Counted from the stretch's first letter, positions 10,085-25,468 are shown. The stretch: DNA of 64,000 nt from an uncultured Spirochaetia bacterium (GCA_964586675.1 CAZPHQ010000001.1:127385-191384), one strand, 5' to 3'. Numbers and translations are program-made. Notes: generated by a model from the sequence alone, not told the origin.

Positions 10085-11281
10085 TTATTCTTCCGGTTTC
10101 TCCAAGCGCAGCTTGTACTGTCCAGACTTGACCGGATCGATCCGGTCGGCCTGTGCAAGCGCCCATTGCGTCCATTCTTCAAATTCCTGCCGGGATATGG
10201 GATTTTCTGCCATATCGTCTGCCTGCTTTACCATTTCTACATAAGCGCGGATTTCATTAGCTTGCCGGAAACTGTTTGCCTGATCCAGCAACTGGTCAAT
10301 GCAATCCTGCTCATACTTTCTTTTTCGTTCAATCCGCTGCCGCTCTTCCTCGATCTGACGCTTGCGTTCTTTTTCCTCTAACTTAGCTTTACGCTCGACC
10401 AGCCACTCATGATGCCGGATTTGTCTGTCACGGTAATATTTTTCACCCTCAACAATGATCTCGATGACAATATCCCGGTAAAATTTCTCAATTTTGCCAT
10501 TTTTATCATCCTGCCAGCTTTTTGCATCAGCCCTTGATTGATGCCAGCTTTCCAATGCCAATCGCATAGGGTCTTTACGGCCGCGTTCTTCAAAACCGTA
10601 TCCTTGCCGCTCCCTCTCAAGCTGTTTGCTAATATTGGCGCTATCCAACGTAAAAGAGACATTTTGGTTGCCAATAGCCACTGATAGCTCTCTCGCCTGT
10701 TTGTCCCGCAGGGATGGTTTCATGCCGCATTGCTCAAGCCTTGTGAAAAGGGTATTTAGAATTTTCAGGCGGCGCTGTTCAAAGGGGTGGTCAAAAGAAG
10801 GGCCATCCCACAAAAACCAGTAACCTGACTCCAATCTGGCCTTTCGACGTTCAGCATCTTTTTCAAGCAATTTGGCAATGAGCCGGTGTGACTTATCCAA
10901 GGTTTTAACAAAAGCGGTTTTCCCGACCAGTTTTTCTACTCTGATCCGTACATCATCCATGGAGTCTTCAAATTCCGGTGGCAGAGGGAGTGGATTATTG
11001 AGAATTTCTGAATCGGATTCCCAATCATAATGGCCGTAATTGCTGCCGCCGATGACAACATCGTCGGACATGCCCAGTCCACGGGCAGGCAAGGCTCGTT
11101 TGGTCACTTTCTGACCGGCTTGCAATCTGTTCCAATATCCCCGCTCCGGCACCGGAATGTCTGATTTAACGCAGGCTTTGGCCAGACCACGGCCGGAAAT
11201 ATCGTATTTTTTGGCCAACTGATACATAGGCTCAGACCAAACAAGGTCGTAAAGCTGCTGGCGTGAAAACCGTTTGCTCAT
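10085..11281 (-). CDS. conserved hypothetical protein (N-terminal HTH-like module, C-terminal E/R/K-rich helix)
   Basis: 398 aa. The N-terminus LYDLVWSEPMYQLAKKYDISGRGLAKACVKSDIPVPERGYW is a module I recognise from many uncharacterised bacterial proteins. The C-terminus has a charged helix, ERKAKLEEKERKRQIEEERQRIERKRK. Confidence 0.7.
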   Translation of the reverse strand: MSKRFSRQQLYDLVWSEPMYQLAKKYDISGRGLAKACVKSDIPVPERGYWNRLQAGQKVTKRALPARGLGMSDDVVIGGSNYGHYDWESDSEILNNPLPLPPEFEDSMDDVRIRVEKLVGKTAFVKTLDKSHRLIAKLLEKDAERRKARLESGYWFLWDGPSFDHPFEQRRLKILNTLFTRLEQCGMKPSLRDKQARELSVAIGNQNVSFTLDSANISKQLERERQGYGFEERGRKDPMRLALESWHQSRADAKSWQDDKNGKIEKFYRDIVIEIIVEGEKYYRDRQIRHHEWLVERKAKLEEKERKRQIEEERQRIERKRKYEQDCIDQLLDQANSFRQANEIRAYVEMVKQADDMAENPISRQEFEEWTQWALAQADRIDPVKSGQYKLRLEKPEE

Positions 11282-11571
11282 GGCTGATGTCTCTAAGCTC
11301 TACAAACCCTATAGTGCTAAAAATTATTAACTTATAAGAAATGTTGCGTAACAGCCTTTGGGGAAATAATTAATTGTAAAGATGTTCCAAATGCCACTAT
11401 AAATATATACTAGATAAAAGGGTAATCATTAATCCGAGTTGTATACTGCGGGATGACGGAATGAAGGAGCACATATCGATACAAGGACATGACGATTATA
11501 AACTCGATTGCCGGCTAATGGCGTACACAATTTAATCCAGATTCGTTCAGCTGCATGATATGGAGGTATGT

Positions 11572-12438
11572 ATGGATTCTGAACTTTTCAAAGAGTCGGT
11601 AGAGTACGAACGGCTGACTCAGGCTGTCTATCAAGCCATTATTCGCAAGGAAGGCCAGAACATCGAAGTTGTTCATAACCAAGATGTCATTGGAAAATCA
11701 GGCGTTGCTCACCAAGTCGACGTGCTTTGGCGCTTCAAGTTAGCTGGCGTCACACATCTCGTCCTCATCGAGTGTAAGAACTATGCCAGCACTCTGACGC
11801 TTGAGAAAGTCAGGAATTTTTTTGCGGTGCTGCATGACATCGCTAATTGTTCAGGTTTGATGGTGACCCGCACAGGATATCAATACGGCGTGGAGCAGTT
11901 TGCAAAGTTTTACGGTATTGGTCTTAAGTTGCTTCGCCATCCCGAACCTGAGGATTGGATAGGAAGAATCAAGAATATACATATCAACTTTCATATCCGA
12001 GAAGTGGTCAGCAGTGAGGATCGACCGATTCGTGTAAACGTCAAATTTGAAGCAAAGGATGCAGATCAAGAAAACTACCTGAAGGAGCTCCAATCCAAAG
12101 GGCGTCTCTCGATGCCTTCTGCTCCAGACATGGTGTTCTGGTCTGGCGACAGAAAAAATGTGACGGAAGAGTTGCGCTGGTGGCTTCCGAAGCAACTCGA
12201 AGTGGCTGGGAAAGCCGATGGTGGTCCCTATATACAAGTGATTCCTCTTAGCGACCACTATCTTCTTTTCAATCCTGGCGACGGTGACGAAGTATTCGTC
12301 AAAGTTAATCAACTTGAAGTCGAATACTTCGTCGAGACTATCGACAACACAGATATGGTGGTTCTGGGTGAAGATCTTATCGAAGCAATTCTCAAAGACT
12401 TTAATTCCGGCGACGTGGAATACACAAAGTTGAAATAG
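11572..12438 (+). CDS. restriction endonuclease-fold (Mrr_cat-like, PD-(D/E)xK) protein with an unassigned C-terminal domain
   Basis: ORF 11560..12438 trimmed to the ATG at 11572 (GGAGG 7 nt upstream). The core HQVDVLW...LVLIECKNY...GLMVTRTGYQYGVEQFA matches the D...ExK Mrr catalytic pattern. The C-terminal 160 aa or so are unassigned. Confidence 0.7.
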   Translation: MDSELFKESVEYERLTQAVYQAIIRKEGQNIEVVHNQDVIGKSGVAHQVDVLWRFKLAGVTHLVLIECKNYASTLTLEKVRNFFAVLHDIANCSGLMVTRTGYQYGVEQFAKFYGIGLKLLRHPEPEDWIGRIKNIHINFHIREVVSSEDRPIRVNVKFEAKDADQENYLKELQSKGRLSMPSAPDMVFWSGDRKNVTEELRWWLPKQLEVAGKADGGPYIQVIPLSDHYLLFNPGDGDEVFVKVNQLEVEYFVETIDNTDMVVLGEDLIEAILKDFNSGDVEYTKLK

Positions 12439-12495: not shown

Positions 12496-14079
12496 CTACG
12501 CCGGATGTTCCTGAAATAAATTCTGTTGCAATAACGGATATCCGGTCGTCAGGCCGATTTCTTTTGCAAGGTCATCCATCGGCACGTTAGCCAGCTCCTT
12601 CGGTTCAAGTTTGTGAAGCCCGCCGCCATAAACACGACCTTCATCAAGAAGCTGTTGGGCATCTATATTGTTAAGATATGACCAGACTTTTTTCATCAGG
12701 GAAGGGTCTTTTGCCAAAGCGTTCGATAAAGCTTTTTTAGGATACATCATCAGGTAAACATTGGTGGCAATGGCGTTTGATTCATTCAATATAAACCGGA
12801 AAGGTCTGCCATTCTTTTTATCGCTGCGGCCGATATAGGTGCAGATAAAGGGAGCGGGGGCGCGGTCTTCCTGCCTGTGCCAAGGCTTGCGCGAACGACA
12901 TAGATAGCGCTCGGATACAGACGGAATGCCCGTTTCCAGGTACTTCCAGAGCGCGGGGTAGAGTTTTTTAATCTCATGTTCGCCAAGGCGGCAGTCCAGT
13001 ATAAAAAGCTGTTTATCTAAAACGGGATTGCCGTGCCGGTCGCCAATGACATGATCTGTTGCAAGGTATCGCGGGCTTGGCAGGATAGGCTGGAAGAATT
13101 TCAAAGGCAGTTTCAGCTCTTCAATTTTCTCGCGGCTGAAAATAAAAAATTTGTTATCACCTGTCGCCAGGCCGCGCTTGATCTGAAAAAGATCACCAAG
13201 CGTTATGGCCGCTTTCTCGCTGCGAATATCCGCAAGCGGGAATCGAATCCATTTCGGCTCATACTGCAAGATGTGCGTGGAAACAAATTTACGCAGCTTA
13301 GGATTATTGACCGTGCCGCCGAAGGTGAATTCAACGACGTTGTCTTTTGACGGCATTTCATTCCGGAAGAAAACGACAGCGGATGACACCAGGGCGTCAT
13401 CAAACTGGACATCGTTGGGATCAAAACGGTGTATGCGTAGCAGATTGACCTTTGTAAGCAGGTAACGTTTTACGGCTGTACCGTAATTCACATTCATGAA
13501 CTCGCTCGGCACCAACCAAGCGGCAACGCCGCTTGCGGCCATCCAGGGGTGCGATAACGCCATAAAATAGCAATACAGCCCGGACAGGCCGGTGATTTTT
13601 ATATCGGCGGATTTCTGGGCGGCATGTTGAAGCCGCAATTTTTCACCGTTCACGATATGGTGATGACGTACATAAGGGGGATTGCATACAAGAAGGTTGA
13701 AGCGCCCGTATTCATTCTTCGGCGGGATAGCCGCCGTGAAGTCCTCCAAATGTATTTTCAATGGTGAATTGGCCCATAGGGAACGCGCGGGACCGGCATA
13801 ATGAGGGTCTATCTCATAACCTTCGGCGGCCGATATTCTGCCGGGCGGCAGGACGCTTTGTAATGCCGAATAAAAGGAGCCCGTTCCGAAGGCGGGATCG
13901 AAAAAACGGACGGGTGAGCCGGAAGGCAACAAGCTTTGTGCATAGCCAACAATTTCCCTTGCAAGCTCCGTCGGCGTTGCAAACTGGCCGAGAATGTTGC
14001 GCTCTTCCTGCGTCTTGACGGCGTCAAGCTCGCTTTGAAGCGTTAATCTGCAGTCTTCCTGTGCGTAATTTTCTTTCAT
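12496..14079 (-). CDS. N6-adenine DNA methyltransferase, Eco57I-family (type II R-M methylase)
   Basis: AdoMet motif FFDPAFGTGSF, followed by the catalytic LLVCNPPYVRHHH (NPPY). There is a large C-terminal target-recognition region. The start lies 3 nt after the stop of the upstream nuclease gene. Confidence 0.9.
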   Translation of the reverse strand: MKENYAQEDCRLTLQSELDAVKTQEERNILGQFATPTELAREIVGYAQSLLPSGSPVRFFDPAFGTGSFYSALQSVLPPGRISAAEGYEIDPHYAGPARSLWANSPLKIHLEDFTAAIPPKNEYGRFNLLVCNPPYVRHHHIVNGEKLRLQHAAQKSADIKITGLSGLYCYFMALSHPWMAASGVAAWLVPSEFMNVNYGTAVKRYLLTKVNLLRIHRFDPNDVQFDDALVSSAVVFFRNEMPSKDNVVEFTFGGTVNNPKLRKFVSTHILQYEPKWIRFPLADIRSEKAAITLGDLFQIKRGLATGDNKFFIFSREKIEELKLPLKFFQPILPSPRYLATDHVIGDRHGNPVLDKQLFILDCRLGEHEIKKLYPALWKYLETGIPSVSERYLCRSRKPWHRQEDRAPAPFICTYIGRSDKKNGRPFRFILNESNAIATNVYLMMYPKKALSNALAKDPSLMKKVWSYLNNIDAQQLLDEGRVYGGGLHKLEPKELANVPMDDLAKEIGLTTGYPLLQQNLFQEHPA

Positions 14080-14082
14080 CGT

Positions 14083-15054
14083 TTACAATCCAAAACTGGC
14101 AAGGTCATCGATCCGGTGTTCCCAAACCCAGTCGATCCCTTCCGCCGCTTCATATCCTAAATAACCACTGTCAAAATATCCGCATAAAAAAAGATTGAAC
14201 CGGACCCTGTCGCCGTAGGTGCTGTGGAGCTGCGCCATCTTTACGGCTTCTTCCTTGCGGCGTTTGTTAACATTAGTAAAGTCGCCGGCTGATTTTGCCT
14301 CGATAAACACGGGAAAATCGCCTTCTATAGCCGTCTTAGGCATGATCGCTGCGTCGATGGGAATATTGATCTGACCAACACCGCCTTCAAGCTTTACAGG
14401 CACATTCATCCGGAAACTGAATGATCCGGGAGGCATATTTTCAAATGTCATGCCGTCGCCGGAAACAACATGTCGGTAATCGCGGGCTTCAAGCCATGCC
14501 TTGATTGCCGATAACTGCCTCTTTTCCTGGGCGTTGCGGATGATCGGATTGGCCTCGGCCCCGCATAAACGATCAGCTATGATGGTTGCGGCCCGGTGGA
14601 TTTCAGCTTCGGTAGGCGGTTCCATCCGTCCCCGCCAGACAAAAATATCGGGATCGGCCATTTTCTCTATAATGGCCCCTATTTTACTCAATTCCTCGTC
14701 CAGCCGGGTTTTACTCATGCGAGGCGGTATCTTTTTATCTCTATCCATTGTTTTGACAAAGCTTTTTGATACCTTGGCAAGACCGATGAGGCGATCCACT
14801 GCCAGGGGTGGACAGGTGGACATGCGCAGGGTCGGAAGGACTTCCGGATGCTGCCTTAAAATCTCCGGACGTATGTCGGTGAGGTTTCCAGTGGATTTTA
14901 GAGTGTCTTCAACATCTTTTGTTGTCTGGATGCGAGTTTTTCTGAAGGCATCAGGCGCAAATTTCATGAACCAGTCATTGTACATATCAACCGACTGGAT
15001 AATATCGGCCTTCCACTGATGCGGTTTATCTAGGTTTACGCCCATATCCGGCAA
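14083..15054 (-). CDS. type II restriction endonuclease, XamI-like (PD-(D/E)xK)
   Basis: NIPIDAAI...FPVFIEAKSAGDFTNVNKRRKEEA gives a D...EAK catalytic pattern, and the sequence resembles my recollection of the XamI family. It is tightly coupled to the methylase. The start is ambiguous (TTG at 15054 or ATG at 15045). Confidence 0.65.
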   Translation of the reverse strand: MPDMGVNLDKPHQWKADIIQSVDMYNDWFMKFAPDAFRKTRIQTTKDVEDTLKSTGNLTDIRPEILRQHPEVLPTLRMSTCPPLAVDRLIGLAKVSKSFVKTMDRDKKIPPRMSKTRLDEELSKIGAIIEKMADPDIFVWRGRMEPPTEAEIHRAATIIADRLCGAEANPIIRNAQEKRQLSAIKAWLEARDYRHVVSGDGMTFENMPPGSFSFRMNVPVKLEGGVGQINIPIDAAIMPKTAIEGDFPVFIEAKSAGDFTNVNKRRKEEAVKMAQLHSTYGDRVRFNLFLCGYFDSGYLGYEAAEGIDWVWEHRIDDLASFGL

Positions 15055-15152
15055 TTATATCCCTGTATCTGATGATCATATCCGGTATCTTCAAAGATTC
15101 TTGCAGCTTAGTAAAACTAAAATCGTGTTTTCTGCCAAGGGTTACCAGAAAA

Positions 15153-16187
15153 TCAGCCTAATTCCCGTAATCTGTTGCGAAGCGCATCGGCCAGTTTCCG
15201 GACGAGGGCTAGCATCTGCCGGGCGTCATTTTCAGTCACGACAATCCGTTGCCCGATGCGATAGCTGCCATCGCGACTGCGGTCAATATAAAGCTGATCT
15301 ACGATGCCTTCGGTGTGTTCCAGTAAATGACGCCTTTGGAAAAGAACATTCAACCTGTCCAGCTCCAGCGGCGTCAGCCAGTCATCATAGCCTTGTCCGA
15401 TGGCGCTGCGCCATAATTCGCTACCTTGTTGCAGCTTCTGAAAAGCATTGCGTGGAGGCGGTGGGTTATCCGGCATCTTTATATAGAGCTGTCCGGCAAG
15501 TCGCTGGAATGCAGAAATGCAATCGCTGAAACAACTTTCGATCAGGGACCAGGAGGTATTTTCGGCTTCGTCCTCCAGACCGGCAGCTTCAAGGGCGGAT
15601 CGGATTGTGTTGATATTATGTAGCTTGCCTTCGGCCTTGTTTAATGAAACGTCAAAGGTACGCTCGACGGAATTATGCCCGCAGGCCGGGCAGAAGTAAG
15701 CGCAGCCGATAACTGCGAACCGGGCCGAACATTCTTCGCATTGTATTTCTTGTTCCATGGCATCTCGTGCCCTAAGGGGTACGATGACTGGGTTTGACGG
15801 TCGCCTATTTGTAATGGAGAGCGAGAGTTTGATAAATGAATTGCGGGGCTGTCTCCTATTAAATTCCTCCGCCCCCATACTTAAGCCACTGTGGATAGCT
15901 CTATGAACCTTCGTAGTCATATAGTCCCTTGCCTGGCGTCTTGCTTCTTCAAGCTGTTCGGTTGTCCACCAGTGGTCGGCCGGTGCTTCTTCACGGCAGC
16001 GGGGGCAGTACACAGCTTCATTTTTGAAAATATTTGTCCAGTCCTCTTTTTTCACTTTGAAAACGTATCGGCACTCCTCTCGCGGGCATTCCCTGTCAGT
16101 AAAACCCTTTTCGTCAGGCGTGAGGGGAAAACCGACGTTTATTGGTTCTTCCAGTTTTTTTAGCTCTTTTATAACGTCTTCAAACAT
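15153..16187 (-). CDS. double zinc-ribbon protein with a C-terminal HEPN-like (Rx4H) helical domain
   Basis: CPREEC...CPRC (aa 34-64) and CEEC...CPAC (aa 150-169). The C-terminal four-helix region carries FQRRHLLEHTEG (R286-x4-H291, nt 15315-15332). It is on the same strand as the R-M operon and 98 nt upstream of it. Confidence 0.7.
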   Translation of the reverse strand: MFEDVIKELKKLEEPINVGFPLTPDEKGFTDRECPREECRYVFKVKKEDWTNIFKNEAVYCPRCREEAPADHWWTTEQLEEARRQARDYMTTKVHRAIHSGLSMGAEEFNRRQPRNSFIKLSLSITNRRPSNPVIVPLRARDAMEQEIQCEECSARFAVIGCAYFCPACGHNSVERTFDVSLNKAEGKLHNINTIRSALEAAGLEDEAENTSWSLIESCFSDCISAFQRLAGQLYIKMPDNPPPPRNAFQKLQQGSELWRSAIGQGYDDWLTPLELDRLNVLFQRRHLLEHTEGIVDQLYIDRSRDGSYRIGQRIVVTENDARQMLALVRKLADALRNRLRELG

Positions 16188-17437
16188 ATTTTTTACTCTG
16201 TAGAATTATATTTTACTTGGATAATTGTAAAAGTTGAATAGCGCAGTCTGTGTGGGGAGGGCTTTACCAAGGGGAAATCCAACACTACGGCCGTCATTTT
16301 GGGGCATGGGGGACGCCTACCCTTCCCTGCCGGTTTTGAGGTCAGGTCGGTGGCGTTTTCGCGGAGAATGCGAAGGTTCTTTTCCGTTTTTTGCTGCCTT
16401 GACAGTTTTTCCTTTGGGAAAGGTCTTGTGATGTCGGCCATACACTCATGTAACTCCGTGATTATCTGTATGGTGCATTCTTGCCGGCCGCGTTTTTCCG
16501 TGCGGATGAGGCATAGATACTTGCGGTGCAGGGAGAGCCGCTCGCGAGCCTCGATCATATCCAGGGCTGCCGCTTTTCGCTGGAGAAGCTTCTGTAGAAG
16601 ATCTGGCGAGCGGCACAATCTACATTCTGCGAAGCAAGTCCGATCATCCGTCTGTCGCGGCGAACCGCGATATTCTACATAAGATCGGCGTCACCGGGGG
16701 GAGATCGAAACTCGCTTCGTCAATGCAAGCTGGACCCGACTTTCCTGATGGCCGAAGTGGAAGTCATCGCCACTTATGATCGAACACGCGGTGGATTAAG
16801 CTTTCAAGCTTGACTCTTTGAGCGCAGTTGAACATTGAAATCAAGGATCGATTCGGCAACCCGGTTAGACTCCGCGAATGGTTCCTCGTCCCTTTTTTCT
16901 CGTCCTCTTTTCATAGTCAACGAAGTGGTCGAAAGCATAAAGGACGGAACAATCACTCAATACGTTTACGATCCGAACGAAGCGCGTCTTGTGAATGTGG
17001 CTCCTGAAGCATGAGGGCCAGGCCCATGCATCCGGTCCGCGATACGGAAGACCCAAAAAAACTTCCTTAAGCTGCACCCGGCCGAGGCGGACAAGATTAG
17101 TTGCAGTCAAAACACTTTGAAGCCATCGGCGTGACATTTGCGAGCGCAATGACCACAGACAGCGTCTGAGCAAGAGAACAGATCGGATTCTTCGATTTAA
17201 TTAGCTGCTATTTCCTCAACCAAATGCCTGCCATCTCCAACAGCTAAAAAGTGATGATCACTCGGCAGTCTTTCATATCCGTTTCAAACGCTGAAAGGGG
17301 CAGCGCGCAATAGCATACACATAGCGAGATTGCAAGGTTGGAATATAGTCAAGATTAAATATAAGCGTTAATTAGTTAGTCTCTTGTGATTTTATATTTG
17401 AGTTGGTCCTATTATACTACTATCCAGAAATCCAATA

Positions 17438-20400
17438 ATGAATCTTGATGCTCTTAAAAAATATAATCTATCCGAAATAGCAAGTGCTGGCCCTCGCTAT
17501 ACACCCGGTCAGGACAAAAACGCGCCTAATCTTCATATTCAAGGGCTCGAAGATGCGCTTGATGCGCTAAGCCTATCAAAAGACTTTAGAAAACGCCTCC
17601 GGGGCTTAGCAAAACTGATTGCAAAAGCTCGTGAGGAGTCGACACACCAGGTAGATCAGTTGTTCAATGGCAAAAAACGATCGCCTCTTTATCTGAAGAA
17701 CCTCATAGAGAAGTTATCTGAGGCGAATCCGCAAGATGCAAAAAGTTTAATCAAGGAAATAAAGGTTGTAATTGAAACAATCAATAAGACCATTAGAAAA
17801 CGAGTGGATAAACTCTTTGAGTTGGAACGTAAGGAACGTGTGAAAAAAAGAGAACAAACTGGCGGCCATGATTATGAACGTAGTCGACTAATGCGTTTTG
17901 AAGAAAATATAGGAGATGTCGTTTCATATTTTTATTCAGCTCCCGATCTAATTTTAAATAATTGCGCTCTCCTGCTTGGCGAATGGGGGACGGGAAAAAC
18001 GCATTCGTTGTGCGATTTCGTAAAGAGACTAACCGAAAACGGCCATTATTGTGTTTTTTCAATAGCGCAGAATTTTCCTCTAAACACGGACCCTATTGAA
18101 GCAATATGCCAAAGAAGTAAGCTCTCAAAAAATATGTCAGAGTTGCTCTCTCACATGGAAAAATTTGGGCAGGAAAATAAGTGCCGCTCTCTTCTAATTG
18201 TGGATGGAATAAACGAAGGTGATAGAGAAGAGTGGAAAAGTGCGGTAGATAAGCTGTATAAAAGCATCAGCAGTATACAACATGTCGGTCTTGTTCTAAG
18301 CTGCCGTACGCCATTTCAGAAACTTATTTTTAACAAGCGCATACTGCGCCGTTATAAAGCTTTTTTTCATCAGGGTTTTAGCGAAATAGAGTTTGAAGCA
18401 CAGGAAGAGTTTTTTAAGTATTACAAAATTCCCTTTCCTGAAGTTCCGCTCTTGTCAGATGAATTTTCTAGGCCACTTACCCTTAAACTGATTTGTAAAG
18501 CTTTAGAAAATCTTACTACATCGAAAAAAAAGAGCACTTTCACGGGCATCGCTTCAGGTCAGAAGGGTATGACCTATATTCTGGAGAAATACATTCAGGA
18601 TTTAGGAGAACCCATCGAAAAAAACTTTAAGTTACCAGGAAAATTCTGCTGGACGTTTCTAAAAGGAACAACCAAGACCAAGGACGGATCAGAGGATGGT
18701 ATAGCGGTCAGGATGGCAAAAGATCAAAAGGAGGTTCTTTCCTATGAAGAAGCATTAGAAATCATTCTGAATGTAACAAAATGGGAATCAAAGGATAAAG
18801 CTAAAAAGTTTTTAAAGGCTATCGTTCACTCCGGCATCTTGTTTGAACATTTTATCTGGATAGATAGTGGATACGTGGATGCCATAAAGCTGCCATATCA
18901 AAAATTTAGCGACCATATTATCGCTCGACACCTTCTAGGTCGATACCTAAGCACCAAGTCTCCAACTGCAATTAAGAGAAGTTTTAATGCAAACAGGCCA
19001 TTAGGAAAGATTTTTGATATCAGTAAGCACGGTCATGAATATGAAATACCCAACTGGGCTGAAGCTCTTATGATCGAATTTCCTGAAAGAATTAAGAAAT
19101 TGAATTCGGAAAACAAGGAACTTATATATTATCTCCCAAAAAGCAAAAGACTCATTACTCCTTCGCTTGATCCATTCCTAAATAGCCTCTTATGGCGTCC
19201 GCCTTCGTCTTTTTGTCGGGGAACAGATGCAATAGTAGATCAGTTGCTTACTATAGGAACGGCAGAAACAAAACATCGTGTCCTCGATGTTCTATTGGCC
19301 CTCGCTGTAAAGAAAAATCATCCATATGGCGCCAAAAGGCTGGATGCATTCCTTTATAAGAAAGCGATGCCGGAACGCGATCTTTTCTGGTCTGAATTTC
19401 TTAGAAAAAGTTACGCCGCAGATACTCCTTATAAGGTAATTTCGTGGTCGATAACAGCTGCAAATCAAGGTATTTCAAAAAGTGTAGCGGAAAATTGCAT
19501 CATCATTCTTATGTGGTTTTTAACCAGTGTTAGCAAACCACAGAGAGATAAGGCAACAGAAGCGATTATAAATCTTGGATTTCTTTATCCAGATCTGGTC
19601 TTCGAAAAAACACTATATAGCATAACAATTAATGATCCTTACGTTTCGGAGAGAATGTTGAGCGCTTCATACGGCATTGCAATGAATAAATGGGCTGAAA
19701 ACCGAAAGAAGTTTAGGGAGCCATTTATGAATTTTGCTAAGGATATTGTGAAAGAAATGTTTCTTCCTGGTGGCAAATGGGGGACTCACAACGCAATATC
19801 TAGAGATTGCGCGCTAGGCTGTATAGAAATCGCGCGTTTGATGGATAAAAATTGTATAGCCAAACAATATCTGCAATATCTAAAACCCCCGTTTTCCCAT
19901 ATTAAATTATCGTTCAAAAAACCTAGAGATATAACAAAAAAGAAAATCGAGGCGGTCGAGTTTGCGATTCATATGGATTTTGAAAACTATACCATAGGAA
20001 GATTGATTCCTGGTCGCGGAAATTATCAATATAATCACCAAGGTTATCAGGCTGTTTTAAAGCAGATAAAGGGACGGATTTATGATCTTGGGTATAGGTC
20101 TGACCAATTTAAAAAAATCGACGAAGAGATTGCACGATATCAAGGGCCGGATACATCGGATCGTCCCTCAAAAAGAGAGAGATACGGTAAAAAGTATTCA
20201 TGGATAGCTTACTACGAGATGTATGGTTATCGTGAAGCTAATGGATTACTTAAAGAAAATAGAAATGACCACAGAATATCGGATATTACTTTCGATCCTA
20301 GTTTGCCCAAAGCCCCAAAGCCTTGTTCACTGAAGCTGCCAAATTTGTTTAGAAACAAGTTTAAAGGCACTTCACATTGGTTAGAATACGGTCTAACTCC

Positions 20401-21262
20401 TGACTACGGGAATCTCCTGGTTCGCGATATCATAAGAGGGGAGCATGGACCTTGGGTATTGCTCGATGGCTATATTCATCAAGCAAACAGTACCGATAAA
20501 CGGGAAATCTTTAGCTTCTTACGGGGACTGTTTATCGAGGAAAAGAATATAGAAGACTTTAAAAAGAAGTTCTTTACTAGACCCTATCCAGGAAATTCTT
20601 CTATCGCCGATCCCCAGGAAGATTTCTACACGTTTGCTGGTGAAATACCGTGGTCGAAGCAACATGCCCCTTACCTTAGATATAAAAACGGACAGGCAAA
20701 ACGACATTTAGAGGATGTTTTTGGGGAGAGTGAGTTCGTTCCCTATAAAAGAAAACCACCTAAAAATGCTCCTTCTGTAGCAATTGAGACACCAGAAGGA
20801 CCTATCTCTGTTGTTCTAGGTAAAAAGTCCGTCACGGGAAAATGGAAAAGAACGCCTGGTGTGCAAGTTGAAATCCCTGTCTATGGTTTCAGTTGGGAAA
20901 GCTATCACAGTATAGTAAACGATTACAGCGGTTTTGATGTTCCAGCACCAGCTATTTCAAATTATCTAGGTCTTAACTATAGAAATCAATCAGTTGAGTT
21001 TTTCGACAGAAATGGAAAAAGAGCCACCATATTTCTGAGATTCCCTATCACAGAGATCTATCACAGCACTCATTTATTATATTTACGCAAAGACCTATTG
21101 GAGAAATATTTAGCACACAAGGGGCAAACCATTGTATGGGCAATCTGGGGAGAAAGAAGCATGCATTATAAGGTTTTCGAAAGGGGATATGTTAATGAAC
21201 AACAATTAGATGCTATATATCAAGAATATAAACACATTCATCGGACTTTTTGCAGGTATTAA
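17438..21262 (+). CDS. 1274-aa STAND/NACHT-like (or KAP-like) P-loop NTPase with an unassigned C-terminal domain
   Basis: Walker A LLLGEWGTGKTH (nt 17978-18001) and Walker B SLLIVDGINEGD (nt 18191-18217; the hhhhDGhxE form is typical of NACHT). Architecture is an N-terminal coiled coil of about 170 aa, a long helical middle region, and about 370 C-terminal aa with no motif I can assign. Confidence 0.85.
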   Translation: MNLDALKKYNLSEIASAGPRYTPGQDKNAPNLHIQGLEDALDALSLSKDFRKRLRGLAKLIAKAREESTHQVDQLFNGKKRSPLYLKNLIEKLSEANPQDAKSLIKEIKVVIETINKTIRKRVDKLFELERKERVKKREQTGGHDYERSRLMRFEENIGDVVSYFYSAPDLILNNCALLLGEWGTGKTHSLCDFVKRLTENGHYCVFSIAQNFPLNTDPIEAICQRSKLSKNMSELLSHMEKFGQENKCRSLLIVDGINEGDREEWKSAVDKLYKSISSIQHVGLVLSCRTPFQKLIFNKRILRRYKAFFHQGFSEIEFEAQEEFFKYYKIPFPEVPLLSDEFSRPLTLKLICKALENLTTSKKKSTFTGIASGQKGMTYILEKYIQDLGEPIEKNFKLPGKFCWTFLKGTTKTKDGSEDGIAVRMAKDQKEVLSYEEALEIILNVTKWESKDKAKKFLKAIVHSGILFEHFIWIDSGYVDAIKLPYQKFSDHIIARHLLGRYLSTKSPTAIKRSFNANRPLGKIFDISKHGHEYEIPNWAEALMIEFPERIKKLNSENKELIYYLPKSKRLITPSLDPFLNSLLWRPPSSFCRGTDAIVDQLLTIGTAETKHRVLDVLLALAVKKNHPYGAKRLDAFLYKKAMPERDLFWSEFLRKSYAADTPYKVISWSITAANQGISKSVAENCIIILMWFLTSVSKPQRDKATEAIINLGFLYPDLVFEKTLYSITINDPYVSERMLSASYGIAMNKWAENRKKFREPFMNFAKDIVKEMFLPGGKWGTHNAISRDCALGCIEIARLMDKNCIAKQYLQYLKPPFSHIKLSFKKPRDITKKKIEAVEFAIHMDFENYTIGRLIPGRGNYQYNHQGYQAVLKQIKGRIYDLGYRSDQFKKIDEEIARYQGPDTSDRPSKRERYGKKYSWIAYYEMYGYREANGLLKENRNDHRISDITFDPSLPKAPKPCSLKLPNLFRNKFKGTSHWLEYGLTPDYGNLLVRDIIRGEHGPWVLLDGYIHQANSTDKREIFSFLRGLFIEEKNIEDFKKKFFTRPYPGNSSIADPQEDFYTFAGEIPWSKQHAPYLRYKNGQAKRHLEDVFGESEFVPYKRKPPKNAPSVAIETPEGPISVVLGKKSVTGKWKRTPGVQVEIPVYGFSWESYHSIVNDYSGFDVPAPAISNYLGLNYRNQSVEFFDRNGKRATIFLRFPITEIYHSTHLLYLRKDLLEKYLAHKGQTIVWAIWGERSMHYKVFERGYVNEQQLDAIYQEYKHIHRTFCRY

Positions 21263-21435: not shown

Positions 21436-22401
21436 ATGATGGAGGATCAGATTAAGAATCTTCTTAAATCGCTACCCAGCAGTCCCGGTTACGACAGGAT
21501 TCAAGAAATCATCAAAGAATACGAAAGAACGAATAGGATATTAGCTGACTTGATATACAGTCCGTGGGAGATGGACCGTTTGATATCGGAAGCAGAGCAA
21601 CTTTCGCAATTTACAGAATTCAACCCGATAATTGATGAAGAACACGCAATGCTGAGTCAGCAACTTGTGGCAACACTGGCACCACAGTCGGCTGCCGATG
21701 CCATAGCGAGTCTAGGCTCTCCCATGAATGAGGGATTAATAAGGCTCGTAAGTCAATGTTTTAGTATTCCGACATCGGGCATTTGTAGCTCAATGGATGA
21801 AACAACAAACCTGGAATTTAACTTAACTGAATTAAAACCATTTGATATATCCAGACACGAATATTTACTGAATACTGAAGCCACACGAACCATAGATCTG
21901 GGAATTGTAAAGCTTAAAACTATTCAACAGACCCAGATGCAAGTTCAGATGAAGGTAACGGATATTCAACAAGATGTAGTTGAGTTAAAGGAGATTGTAA
22001 TAAAAGACGTGCAAAAGAAAGATGAAATGCTCGGAGAACTGCTTGATTATTTCCGTAATGGGGGCTCGAATGCAGTAAAAATCAGAAAGCTCAACTATAA
22101 CAAAAAATCAGCCGAGCTTATAATTAATGACACAGTTATACAAATCAGAACCGATACGAATCAACACTACCTATGTAAATTATTATTTTCCAGCAAAACA
22201 AGCATTAAGAGAGTTTGGGAGATCTACGATATCGTGGAAGCATTCGGCGAAGACACCACATGCCTTAAAGACTGGCGCAACATTATATACAACACTGTCA
22301 GGCATCTGAATGAGAAGATACAGTCTCAAACAGGGTTAGAAAAATTCATATTGTTCGACAATAAAACAATATTAATTAATCCCAACTACTTAGACCTCTA
22401 G
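21436..22401 (+). CDS. hypothetical protein with a C-terminal OmpR/PhoB-like winged-helix pattern
   Basis: 321 aa. The C-terminus SAELIINDTVIQIRTDTNQHYLCKLLFSS...VWEIYDIVEAFGED...WRNIIYNTVRHLNEKIQ...FILFDNKTILINPNY follows the Trans_reg_C spacing. There is a central Q-rich coiled coil. Confidence 0.7.
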   Translation: MMEDQIKNLLKSLPSSPGYDRIQEIIKEYERTNRILADLIYSPWEMDRLISEAEQLSQFTEFNPIIDEEHAMLSQQLVATLAPQSAADAIASLGSPMNEGLIRLVSQCFSIPTSGICSSMDETTNLEFNLTELKPFDISRHEYLLNTEATRTIDLGIVKLKTIQQTQMQVQMKVTDIQQDVVELKEIVIKDVQKKDEMLGELLDYFRNGGSNAVKIRKLNYNKKSAELIINDTVIQIRTDTNQHYLCKLLFSSKTSIKRVWEIYDIVEAFGEDTTCLKDWRNIIYNTVRHLNEKIQSQTGLEKFILFDNKTILINPNYLDL

Positions 22402-22450: not shown

Positions 22451-22636
22451 ATGCAATCTGAGGCCAGAAGTTTAAAAAACATAGAGATCAAGAAGAATCT
22501 GAATAGAGATAGCGCAGATTCCAGATTGCGGATGTTCTTTGAAATTCTCATGAAAATCGACAAGCGTGAAAATATCGTGCGTGGCGCACGCGAATCGAAA
22601 GATAAAGAGCTCAAAATAAATTGTGAAAACCAATGA
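22451..22636 (+). CDS. possible small basic ORF overlapping the rep start (ATGA)
   Basis: 61-aa ORF whose TGA overlaps the ATG of the Rep-like gene. No recognisable domain. It may instead be non-coding origin or promoter DNA. Confidence 0.25.
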   Translation: MQSEARSLKNIEIKKNLNRDSADSRLRMFFEILMKIDKRENIVRGARESKDKELKINCENQ

Positions 22637-23745
22637 TCGACACAATAACTATTCGACTCGCTGCACCTCAATTCAGAATAACCGACCACTATAAATTCAG
22701 TCCGGACACCCATAACTTTTTCTATCCGCCTTATGCAAAAATGGGTGGCAGGGCATATTTGGATTCATACCAAAACCCAACGAGGTCGGAGCTTAAAGAA
22801 GGAGAATACAAACCACAACTTACAGTGCGTAAGAGATGGCAGGATTCAGAGCCTTTGATATTTCTCTACGTACAATTTTCAGCACCAAAAATCCTCTTTG
22901 GCAATAACTTTGATGAACTTAAGGACACCGATTTGGATGAAGTTATAAATGTATTAAATTCAAGACTGTCAGATATGGGAGTTATTACAAGCAAAACCGA
23001 ATTACTAAAAGCAAAAGTTGTAAAGATTCATTACTCCAAGAACATAGTATTGCCGGATTATATTATTCCGAGCATGCTGATCGGCGAAGTCAGAAAAGTG
23101 GACTTCAATCTTCATAGAGAACTCACTGAAAGAGATTACAGAAATTCAGGGCAGAGTTTACGATTCCACGTTAAAGATTTCGAGTTAATACTTTATGACA
23201 AAAAGAAGGACATGCAGAAATCTATTGATAAAGACAACACTTTGCAACTCGAACTCTTTGAAAAAATACAAAGAAAGAGACCTTTTGAAGTTTTACGTAT
23301 AGAGATAAGACTTAATAGCACTAACAGGATCAAAGATGAAGTGGGAATACCTAAAAAAGACCATACACTGGAAAGATTATTCGATACTCAAATTAGCATT
23401 AAGGTACTTCAAAGATATTGGACGCAACTAAATAAAGGCTATAAAAGTCTAAATTACGATATTCAGGATAAAGAGAAATTTCTGGCCAGCTTTTTGGTAA
23501 ACAATCCCGAGGCCCGAATATCAAATGCTTTTACGACTTATGCTATGTTGGAATTTTTACAAGATATAGGCACTAGCAAGCTTAGAAACCTAATAGATAC
23601 CAAGTTTTCCAAGCGGACCTGGTTCAATTTGAAAGCCAATCTGAACAAGTATAAACTTAATGGAGAATTGCCGGATTATTTCAATGCAATATCAGATTCC
23701 TTAAAGAAATACACCCCCTTAAATTTGAAAGACCATCTTATCTAA
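22633..23745 (+). CDS. rolling-circle replication initiator-like protein (Rep_trans / phage gene II-X family-like)
   Basis: The MIDTITIRL N-terminus, FSAPKILFGNNFDEL, FELILYDKKKD (YDK active-site-Tyr-like motif) and LRIEIRLN follow the pattern I recall for Rep_trans/CRI-type initiators. Confidence 0.6.
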   Translation: MIDTITIRLAAPQFRITDHYKFSPDTHNFFYPPYAKMGGRAYLDSYQNPTRSELKEGEYKPQLTVRKRWQDSEPLIFLYVQFSAPKILFGNNFDELKDTDLDEVINVLNSRLSDMGVITSKTELLKAKVVKIHYSKNIVLPDYIIPSMLIGEVRKVDFNLHRELTERDYRNSGQSLRFHVKDFELILYDKKKDMQKSIDKDNTLQLELFEKIQRKRPFEVLRIEIRLNSTNRIKDEVGIPKKDHTLERLFDTQISIKVLQRYWTQLNKGYKSLNYDIQDKEKFLASFLVNNPEARISNAFTTYAMLEFLQDIGTSKLRNLIDTKFSKRTWFNLKANLNKYKLNGELPDYFNAISDSLKKYTPLNLKDHLI

Positions 23746-23785: not shown

Positions 23786-23998
23786 ATGGAAAGTATGTTA
23801 ATAGACTTGCCCCGACAAATAAAGCGGATTCGTGAGGAAAAAGAAATTACGCAAAAAGAACTTGCGAAAATTTCAGGTGTAAGCTATTCAACCTTAACCA
23901 AGCTTGAAACAGGCGTGATCAAAAATCCCTCCTTTGAAGTGGTATTGAGAATTATTAAGGCACTGGAAATCGATTTATCCGATCTAATGACGGAATAA
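23786..23998 (+). CDS. XRE-family helix-turn-helix transcriptional regulator
   Basis: ITQKELAKISGVSYSTLTKLETGVIKNPSFEVVLRIIKAL is a canonical HTH_3/Cro-C1 pattern. 70 aa. Confidence 0.85.
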   Translation: MESMLIDLPRQIKRIREEKEITQKELAKISGVSYSTLTKLETGVIKNPSFEVVLRIIKALEIDLSDLMTE

Positions 23999-24010
23999 GA
24001 ATATCCAACA

Positions 24011-25468
24011 ATGAAAGCAATATTATTAGCCAGGGTTTCAACAGAAGAACAAAATACTGAGAGTCAGTTAATTAAGCTTAAAGAATACGCAGACGAGGAG
24101 GGATTCGAATATACAAAAGAAGACATTTTTGATTTCTATGAATCCGCTTACAAAAGCAATAGAGAACACTTCCAAGAAGTGATCGCGTATTTAAACGAGC
24201 AGAAGGACAAAGTAGCTCTATGTTGTGATAAGGTAGACAGATTATTAAGAAACTTCTTGCACTTGAGGCCTATTCAGGAATTACTTGAGCAAGACAGAAT
24301 CGAGTTACATTTTCCATCTGACAATTTAGTGTTGAATAATAATTCTCAAGCTACTGAAAAATTCAAATTCAACCTTGGGGCTATGTTAGCCCAATATTAT
24401 TCGGACGCCATCAGCGACAACGTGAGGCGTTCGATATACAAACGAATAAAATCAGGGCAAATACTTGGAAAAGCACCATACGGATATAGAAATGCAACAC
24501 TCGATGACGATACAAAAACTGTTGAGACAAATCCATTCGAGGCCTCTGTCGTACTCAAGATTTTTGAGTGGTATGCAACAGGATCATATGCGCTAAGCGA
24601 GATTAAAGAGAAAATCCATAAAGAATTCGGTGTGAAACTAGGCAAATCAACCATTGCAAAAATACTCGAAAATAAATTCTACATTGGGATTGCCGAGTAT
24701 AAAAAACAGGGAACGGAATATCATCACATTTACCCAACTATAGTTCCAAGTAATATCTTTTACACTGCGCAGGAAGTCAAAGCAGGTAGAAATCCCTTTT
24801 TAGGCTCAGGTATTAAATACTCCGGAAAAGAATTTTTTTACAGAGGACTCATTAATTGTTCCACATGCGGGTACTCCATATCTCCAGAAGAACATAGAAG
24901 CAAAAAATATTATTGCTGCACTGAATATGGAGGCAAACATGGAGCACACTATGTAAACGAGGATGTACTAACAAACGAATTTGCTGAAGCTTTTAGACGA
25001 ATTACCATATCAGAGGCTACCGCTCAGAAAATAATTCATGAAGTACATCAATTAAACGAAACGAACCTTTATATGTCTCAGGAGCTCATAGATAATTTCA
25101 GAAAGGAAAAAGACAAAATACGCAAAAGGATATCAAAACTATATGATGCATATTTTGACGAAAGTATTACTAAGGAAATGTATGAAGGAAAATTGAATCA
25201 ATATAATACAGAATTGAAAAGAATTGAGGACAGGCTGAAAAACGTAGAAAAGGTCGATAAAGATTTTTATGCTACCGCCGAATATATAATTCAGCTTGCT
25301 AAACATAGCAGCGCGTTATTCAGGTGTTCAGAATATGAAGAAAGGAGACTGCTAATTAACACAGTACTTCTGAACGTTAAATGGAATGGTCTAAACCTTT
25401 GTTATGATTACAAAGAACCATTCAATTTGCTAGCAAATATGCATGAGAGTACAGGGTGGGGTGAGTGA
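24011..25468 (+). CDS. large serine recombinase (integrase)
   Basis: N-terminal resolvase motif ILLARVSTEEQ with the catalytic Ser, GKAPYGYRN in the recombinase domain, the zinc ribbon CSTCGYSISPEEHRSKKYYCC, and a C-terminal coiled coil. The last 12 nt overlap tRNA-His. Confidence 0.9.
   Translation: MKAILLARVSTEEQNTESQLIKLKEYADEEGFEYTKEDIFDFYESAYKSNREHFQEVIAYLNEQKDKVALCCDKVDRLLRNFLHLRPIQELLEQDRIELHFPSDNLVLNNNSQATEKFKFNLGAMLAQYYSDAISDNVRRSIYKRIKSGQILGKAPYGYRNATLDDDTKTVETNPFEASVVLKIFEWYATGSYALSEIKEKIHKEFGVKLGKSTIAKILENKFYIGIAEYKKQGTEYHHIYPTIVPSNIFYTAQEVKAGRNPFLGSGIKYSGKEFFYRGLINCSTCGYSISPEEHRSKKYYCCTEYGGKHGAHYVNEDVLTNEFAEAFRRITISEATAQKIIHEVHQLNETNLYMSQELIDNFRKEKDKIRKRISKLYDAYFDESITKEMYEGKLNQYNTELKRIEDRLKNVEKVDKDFYATAEYIIQLAKHSSALFRCSEYEERRLLINTVLLNVKWNGLNLCYDYKEPFNLLANMHESTGWGE

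Follow-up and report, generated by a model that had tools for sequence, protein, structure and literature searches.

The stretch of DNA analyzed here, 64,000 nucleotides (nt) from an uncultured Spirochaetia bacterium (GCA_964586675.1 CAZPHQ010000001.1:127385-191384; hereafter the window), encodes in succession on its minus strand a 344-residue protein with two zinc ribbons (ZnR) and a HEPN-like C-terminal domain, a XamI-like nuclease and an Eco57I-family N6-methyladenine (m6A) DNA methylase. An initial annotation of the window had proposed that these three genes form one composite defense module. Comparison of gene neighborhoods suggests, on the contrary, that the trio consists of two independent modules and not of one system. 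We think it reasonably probable that these modules are neighbors within a mobile defense island and that the 344-residue protein, called ZnR-HEPN below, is a stand-alone latent defense RNase.

The three open reading frames (ORFs) were recovered where the initial annotation had placed them, on one strand and with gaps of 98 nt (ZnR-HEPN to nuclease) and 3 nt (nuclease to methylase); coordinates are collected in Table 1. They are real genes and not chance ORFs, since a database search with the 344-residue protein gave 833 matches (E≤1e-3) and identical copies are present on 14 contigs.

The XamI-type restriction-modification pair

The families assigned to the nuclease and the methylase in the initial annotation were borne out. 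The nuclease covers the full RE_XamI profile; it has 323 residues if translation begins at a TTG codon, and 320 if it begins at the ATG (15045) that other assemblies call as the start. The methylase (527 residues) matches Eco57I (PF07669, E=9.5e-12), N6-adenine methylase models and the PADLOC type II methyltransferase model (E=1.1e-137). Its motif order, FxGxG followed by NPPY (at position 133), is that of the gamma class.

For the restriction-modification (R-M) side of the comparison, 80 metagenomic loci encoding XamI relatives (65-77 % identity) were sampled. The methylase gene lies downstream on the same strand in all 49 loci with sufficient sequence. With a RE_XamI nuclease and an adjacent cognate methylase, the pair thus belongs to type II R-M systems of the XamI type. 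As read from its genes, it is a complete, self-sufficient and ordinary operon of this kind; the order of nuclease, then gamma-class m6A methylase, matches that of XamI/SalI-type systems, and nothing in it is unusual.

Linkage of ZnR-HEPN to the restriction-modification pair

For the ZnR-HEPN side, 78 reference-genome loci of homologs were sampled, and genes within five positions were counted as neighbors. None of the 78 loci has a XamI-family neighbor, and a weak Eco57I-like match was found in one. Reciprocally, no ZnR-HEPN homolog was found anywhere in the 45 XamI loci with at least 1.2 kb of upstream sequence. The 676 neighbors fall into 570 sequence clusters, the largest of which is found in 8 loci at scattered positions, and no recurrent partner emerged. 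There is no conserved small flanking ORF either: the largest such cluster covers 4 of the 78 loci, all from related taxa. Even close relatives of the protein (73, 70, 64 and 62 % identity) have other neighbors and lack the R-M pair.

The trio recurs once, in a related element (locus L086), with the same order and spacing. The three proteins have diverged in parallel between the two elements (80.8 % identity for ZnR-HEPN, 84.4 % for the nuclease and 83.7 % for the methylase), and their genes lie within a 4-kb block of 80 % DNA identity. This block starts inside the relaxase gene of L086, and a segment upstream of ZnR-HEPN in the window aligns to residues 391-485 of the L086 relaxase (tblastn, 53 % identity, E=5e-26). 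Because the shared block includes the 3' end of the relaxase gene, the trio appears to be the inherited backbone of one mobile-element lineage and not a convergent linkage. Co-occurrence conserved across lineages, as expected of a three-gene composite, was thus found in neither sample, and L086 is the only second instance. Linkage to R-M, on which the initial annotation had made its proposal depend, was therefore not borne out for the family; linkage to defense genes, its other stipulation, was seen, and involves many different systems (see below).

The 98-nt spacer was also scanned. No terminator and no convincing promoter were detected in it, all counts being at or near shuffle expectation. 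Folding of the window spacer did not differ from expectation (z=-0.1), and the L086 spacer forms a hairpin without a U-tract. Since neither signal was detected, ZnR-HEPN may be co-transcribed with the R-M genes in the window; such co-transcription, if present, would be incidental to the biology of the family. For annotation, the appropriate label of the XamI pair is an ordinary type II R-M system, and the gene upstream is best listed as a candidate in its own right. More generally, adjacency and a shared strand within a defense island do not define a system.

Architecture and conservation of ZnR-HEPN

No Pfam family matches the 344-residue protein. Each ribbon contains four cysteines; the second has the CxxC...CxxC pattern ascribed to both in the initial annotation, and the first is in fact Cx4C...CxxC. 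The sequence QRRHLLEH stands at residues 284-291. The eight cysteines do not vary in an alignment of 43 sequences from many phyla, and neither do R286, H287 and H291. Invariance extends to E217, Q228, N247, F249, Q250, W259, G294, D297, Y300, Q313 and R314. Mean pairwise identity is highest in the ribbons (62 % in ribbon 1 and 71 % in ribbon 2) and ranges from 30 to 55 % elsewhere.

AlphaFold2 models were obtained for the full-length protein and for the C-terminal domain alone (mean predicted local distance difference test, pLDDT, of 86 and 95.6, respectively). The full-length model consists of two beta-ribbons, a long helix (residues 76-111), a basic loop predicted with low confidence (112-145) and, at the C-terminus, a helical domain. 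In ribbon 1, beta-strands are modeled at residues 29-33, 42-46, 58-60 and 67-69. Matches to designed pentatricopeptide-repeat sequences of the PDB (E down to 3e-11) were rejected as a repeat artifact: they sum weak per-repeat scores, each stretch having E>25 when the full-length protein was searched.

Assignment of the C-terminal domain

According to Anantharaman et al. 2013 (PMC3710099), HEPN domains show an Rx4-6H motif where helix 3 ends, with a polar residue (N, D or H) following the arginine; helix 2 carries an acidic residue, and inserts often separate helices 2 and 3. In the 43 sequences, R286 and H291 provide an invariant motif of this type, and the invariant H287 is the polar residue after the arginine. 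As the initial annotation had anticipated for RRHLLEH (285-291), the model places R286-H291 at the C-terminal end of a helix. Indeed, the motif closes the predicted helix 273-291 in the full-length model and the equivalent helix (101-119) in the domain model. This helix is preceded by a 35-residue insert, which lies between core helices 2 and 3 of the model. The invariant E217 is located within helix 205-237, but the residue at +4 is a serine and not K/R, so that the Ex3[KR] context is lacking.

Fold and profile comparisons were less clear-cut. The best meaningful PDB matches obtained with Foldseek are HepT/MNT-type HEPN toxins, another HEPN-domain protein, Csm6 and the integron HEPN protein 3jrt, with template modeling (TM) scores of 0.44-0.58 and probabilities up to 0.94; all have E≥0.15 and are below significance. 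With the C-terminal domain alone, HepT/MNT-associated HEPN toxins were retrieved at TM 0.44-0.54 (E≥0.4). In the BFVD viral search, the top matches were uncharacterized phage proteins (E=4e-3), and a MAE_28990-like HEPN came at rank 7 (E 1.1, probability 0.15). The sole recurrent Pfam signal was HEPN_RiboL-PSP, found in 4 of 21 C-terminal domains and spanning helices 2-4 (best E=0.0045); its best score, 17.4, is below the 28.4-bit gathering cutoff.

Altogether, the motif and its position in the models support the HEPN assignment well and the fold and profile matches are suggestive of it, which makes it likely that the C-terminal domain is HEPN. The HEPN claim of the initial annotation thus holds for the motif, its position and the nature of the best meaningful matches, and lacks significant fold or profile scores. 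Its statement that the protein is not a C-protein controller is clearly correct.

Distribution and neighborhoods of the family

Among the best 120 of the 833 homologs, nearly all are about 335 residues long, with near-full coverage and 45-81 % identity; named sources include Myxococcota, Bacteroidota, Gammaproteobacteria and Zixibacteria. A scan with one genome per species gave 221 loci, among them loci of Campylobacterota, Nitrospirota, Thermodesulfobacteriota, Verrucomicrobiota and ANME-1/Methanophagales archaea. When a profile of the C-terminal domain was searched exhaustively, 1,400 representatives of 50 % identity clusters were retrieved (E≤1e-3). Eleven matches were found on plasmids, 8 of them conjugative, all annotated as hypothetical proteins, as was every annotated record of the family that was inspected. 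No member was found in 50,697 phage records or in 5,426 complete E. coli genomes.

Two sets of atypical homologs were considered and set aside. Short homologs (120-300 residues) could have been split two-gene versions matching PDC-M14A; the two checked in their genomes result from an IS21 insertion and a frameshift, and most of the others are on short contigs and probably fragments. Longer proteins (418-558 residues) that contain the C-terminal domain had looked like possible fusions, but Pfam revealed no further domain of note in them, and one is probably a chimera with biotin carboxylase. The two interrupted genes are pseudogenes, one from Sulfurospirillum split by IS21 (rve and IstB; L093, 6001-9118) and one frameshifted in a 6-Mb genome (L094, 6001-7006). 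The gene is dispensable and decaying in some hosts.

The immediate neighbors of the homologs are very diverse. Those related to defense include CBASS SAVED nucleases, CapP, SLATT, TIR/SEFIR, LmuA, Mokosh, PDC-S06 and type I/ISP restriction genes. Other immediate neighbors include DUF4238, integrases, transposases, T4 coupling proteins (T4CP), P4-type primases and ordinary metabolic genes. Many copies are located in chromosomal defense islands with CBASS, Lamassu, Mokosh or restriction genes. On plasmids, T4CP or TraC genes are found near family members. The ZnR-HEPN gene lies directly downstream of the relaxase gene in L086 and of T4CP genes in four Bacteroidota loci (L015, L021, L024 and L049).

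In three loci (L010, L055 and L081), a CapP-type (Peptidase_M78) gene lies upstream on the same strand (PADLOC capP, E=2.6e-56); in two of these loci, the two genes are 18-46 nt apart. This placement suggests a DNA-damage-responsive control like that described for CBASS.

Comparison with known systems

The closest functional analogue is RAZR (PD-T7-4), a single-gene abortive-infection system with a Cys4 ribbon and a DUF4145 HEPN domain (R146/H154) (Zhang et al., Nature 2026, PMC13017515). RAZR shows no toxicity before it has assembled around phage portal or Erf-like rings, and its hypervariable zinc-finger domain sets specificity (PMC13017515). Both proteins combine an N-terminal Cys4 ribbon module with a C-terminal HEPN domain carrying R and H (essential in RAZR), and both are encoded by single genes that are widespread across phyla. 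However, RAZR has one ribbon, whereas the window protein has two, about 70 residues apart, and an Rx4H motif. DUF4145 (PF13643) was not detected in the full protein (E≤0.1) or in 21 C-terminal domains (E≤10), none of the 43 family members matches PD-T7-4 in PADLOC, and the first 50 PDB fold matches do not include the RAZR entries 9Y9C and 9Y6U. Membership of the RAZR family therefore fails.

The N-terminal module points elsewhere. Residues 19-172 match the whole 152-position PADLOC profile PDC-M14A, as does the double-ribbon module of all 43 members. Scores are low (E=4e-13 and 48 bits for the window protein; best E=2e-18), which indicates that the module is a distant relative of PDC-M14A. PDC-M14A has no HEPN part, and PDC-M14 is a multi-gene candidate, whereas the present family has no conserved second gene: no neighbor is recurrent, and the 25 PADLOC families most often met with at ±1 do not include PDC-M14B. 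Our literature search found no paper mentioning PDC-M14 and, RAZR apart, no named zinc-finger HEPN system matching the family.

Among HEPN toxins, HepT/MntA (type VII toxin-antitoxin, TA) and minimal HEPN toxins provide the best structural matches (6m6u, 7bxo, 5yep, 7ae8 and 4nqf; TM 0.44-0.58, not significant) and share the Rx4H-type motif. ZnR-HEPN differs from them by its N-terminal ribbons, a larger HEPN domain with the 35-residue insert and the lack of an MNT partner; the 25 Pfam families that occur most often at ±1 do not include the MNT antitoxin, so that the family does not qualify as a HepT/MntA-type system. The sub-threshold Pfam signal recalls the RiboL-PSP-HEPN (PF18735)/AbiD-AbiF branch, but the L-PSP fusion and ParB operon are absent from the window family.

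The initial annotation had also put forward that no described system with such a HEPN/R-M architecture was known. This was too strong, since DUF4145, AbiU2, AbiJ, AbiA-CTD and PrrC/RloC have all been listed in R-M operons (Anantharaman et al. 2013, PMC3710099). PrrC-EcoprrI and RloC resemble the window trio in that a HEPN RNase is adjacent to R-M genes as a back-up layer (PMC3710099). They differ by an ABC-ATPase N-domain and a consistent link to type I R-M, whereas the window has a type II pair, in a single shallow lineage.

Interpretation

The family is a plausible candidate for a single-gene defense RNase. The independence of the two modules, the HEPN assignment, the defense and mobile-element settings (including the PDC-M14A match and the other genes of the window island) and the precedent of RAZR all speak for this. 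In the mechanism that we propose, the two Cys4 ribbons, joined by the long helix and the flexible basic loop, would form the recognition or regulatory part. In the C-terminal domain, R286, H287 and H291 would form a metal-independent RNase site, probably active only on dimerization or oligomerization of the HEPN domains. The protein would stay latent until the ribbon module binds an infection-derived cue. The activated HEPN domain would then cleave RNA and stop translation, following the abortive-infection logic shown for RAZR.

The nature of the cue may differ from that of RAZR. Since the ribbons are the most conserved parts of the protein, a conserved ligand, possibly nucleic acid, is favored over a fast-evolving protein trigger. 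The family could be a new class of single-protein immune sensor, in which the conserved double ribbon reads a conserved nucleic-acid or small-ligand cue and not a variable phage protein. Compared with the hypervariable ribbon of RAZR, this conservation suggests a different sensing logic coupled to the same kind of effector. If confirmed as a defense RNase, the family would add a widespread system, with its 1,400 clusters in many bacterial phyla, ANME-1/Methanophagales archaea and conjugative plasmids. It is absent from the 5,426 complete genomes of E. coli, the species behind the two functional screens cited here (PD-T7-4/RAZR and DefensePredictor).

Several points weigh against a stand-alone defense RNase. 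The HEPN fold and profile matches are all below significance (Foldseek E≥0.15; Pfam 17 versus 28 bits). The high conservation of the ribbons, unlike the hypervariability of the RAZR zinc finger, does not indicate an arms race between ribbon and protein trigger; nucleic acid, or else a conserved ligand, may be what the ribbons bind. The list of defense-gene neighbors records occurrences and not an enrichment over genomic background. In both the window and L086, the gene and the R-M genes share a strand, the former being about 100 nt upstream of the latter, with no detectable terminator between. Finally, what is known of the family comes from sequence, genome context and predicted models.

Four other explanations were weighed. 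The best of them, which we nevertheless consider unlikely, is that ZnR-HEPN is an addiction or stabilization toxin, TA-like, with an unrecognized antitoxin or self-inhibition, and maintains plasmids and islands without an anti-phage role. HEPN domains are common as TA toxins, and the best fold matches are HepT toxins; the gene is often found on conjugative plasmids, on integrative and conjugative elements and beside transposases, and pseudogenized copies exist. However, it is accompanied by neither MNT nor another conserved adjacent gene nor a conserved small ORF. Moreover, many copies are intact without a partner, and therefore the protein is not constitutively toxic.

Slightly less probable is a role in the transfer of the mobile element (anti-defense, exclusion or conjugation-linked RNA processing) and not in host immunity. 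The relaxase gene directly upstream in L086, the T4CP genes directly upstream in the four Bacteroidota loci, and the T4CP/TraC genes nearby on plasmids, would fit such a role. Most loci, however, have no adjoining conjugation genes, and many are chromosomal defense islands. To our knowledge, there is no HEPN anti-defense protein, which also weighs against this explanation.

We give the same low probability to a non-catalytic C-terminal domain, the protein being a zinc-ribbon nucleic-acid-binding regulator in which RHxxxH is structural or binds a ligand. The sub-significant HEPN matches and the superior conservation of the ribbons agree with this idea. Against it, the R, H and H of the motif show strict invariance, shared by E217, N247, Q250, D297, Y300, Q313 and R314, and stand at the canonical HEPN position; a patchy, mobile-element-linked distribution is also atypical of a regulator.

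The least probable explanation is that of a composite, in which a ZnR-HEPN captured in a shallow lineage serves the XamI pair as a PrrC-EcoprrI-like second line, here of type II, co-transcribed with it and triggered by restriction inhibition or R-M loss: the shared strand, the terminator-free spacer, the co-diverging trio of L086 and the precedents of PrrC/RloC and other HEPN nucleases in R-M operons speak for it, but the linkage is confined to one lineage whose shared block includes a relaxase end, is missing from both samples and from relatives at 73 % identity or less, and the R-M pair is complete without ZnR-HEPN in 49 of 49 loci.

The surrounding island

Table 1. Features of the locus, with positions in the window and the evidence for each.
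Feature	Position	Strand	Evidence
Gene for the 344-residue double zinc-ribbon/HEPN-like protein	15153..16187	-	ORF; 833 homologs at E≤1e-3; AlphaFold2 model, mean pLDDT 86
Zinc ribbon 1, residues 21-75, C34-x4-C39...C61-x2-C64	15963..16127	-	Invariance of the cysteines; modeled beta-strands
Zinc ribbon 2, residues 146-173, C150-x2-C153...C166-x2-C169	15669..15752	-	Invariance of the cysteines
C-terminal helical HEPN-like domain, residues 174-344	15156..15668	-	Domain-only model; Foldseek; weak Pfam signal
Putative catalytic motif R286-H287-L-L-E-H291 (Rx4H, polar residue after R)	15315..15332	-	Invariance; position at helix end
XamI-family type II restriction endonuclease	14083..15054	-	PF09572, E=1.5e-124 (Pfam); PADLOC REase_II, E=3e-111
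Eco57I-family gamma-class N6-adenine DNA methyltransferase, partner of the XamI nuclease	12496..14079	-	Pfam; PADLOC; motif order; linkage in 49/49 loci
Relaxase C-terminal remnant (decayed), adjoining ZnR-HEPN on its upstream side	16298..16582	-	tblastn with the L086 relaxase

The trio lies within a low-GC island of the window, at about 10-26 kb (GC 0.34-0.50, versus about 0.56). It also contains genes for a Mrr_cat-like protein, an Avs2-like STAND NTPase, three proteins without assigned function, a helix-turn-helix (HTH) protein and a large serine recombinase. An ORF is listed at 16193-16618 as well, but it corresponds to the relaxase pseudogene fragment and not to a genuine gene.

The serine recombinase (23786-25468, plus strand) contains Resolvase, Recombinase and Zn_ribbon_recom domains and stands with the HTH gene at the island edge. 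These two genes are likely the integration module of the whole defense island.

The Avs2-like gene (17438-21262, plus strand; PADLOC E=1.5e-164) encodes a protein that aligns to Avs2 profiles only from about position 174 and thus apparently has no N-terminal effector domain of the usual kind; about 450 residues at its C-terminus are without any match. Three co-oriented genes follow it (21436-22401, 22451-22636 and 22633-23745, plus strand), with no Pfam or PADLOC match, and might supply its effector. Use of ZnR-HEPN in trans by the Avs2-like protein was considered and rejected, as the two genes are separated by the relaxase remnant and the ZnR-HEPN and R-M block occurs without Avs2 in L086.

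The Mrr_cat-like gene (11560-12438, plus strand; 292 residues) is convergent with the methylase gene. A homolog (31 % identity) is found in a Chromatiales metagenome-assembled genome (L081, 10839-11714), where it is on the strand of the ZnR-HEPN homolog and shares 2 nt with the 3' end of the latter; this pair is preceded by the CapP-like gene. The recurrence in two distant lineages may be due to chance within defense islands.

Finally, a gene for a 398-residue protein without assigned function is shared by the window (10417-11292) and L086 (10972-11847) at 93 % DNA identity, versus 80 % for the ZnR-HEPN and R-M block. Between this gene and the block, the window has the Mrr-like gene, and L086 has genes for a 722-residue protein with a P-loop-like N-terminus and for a 346-residue protein. 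The two islands are thus recombination mosaics.

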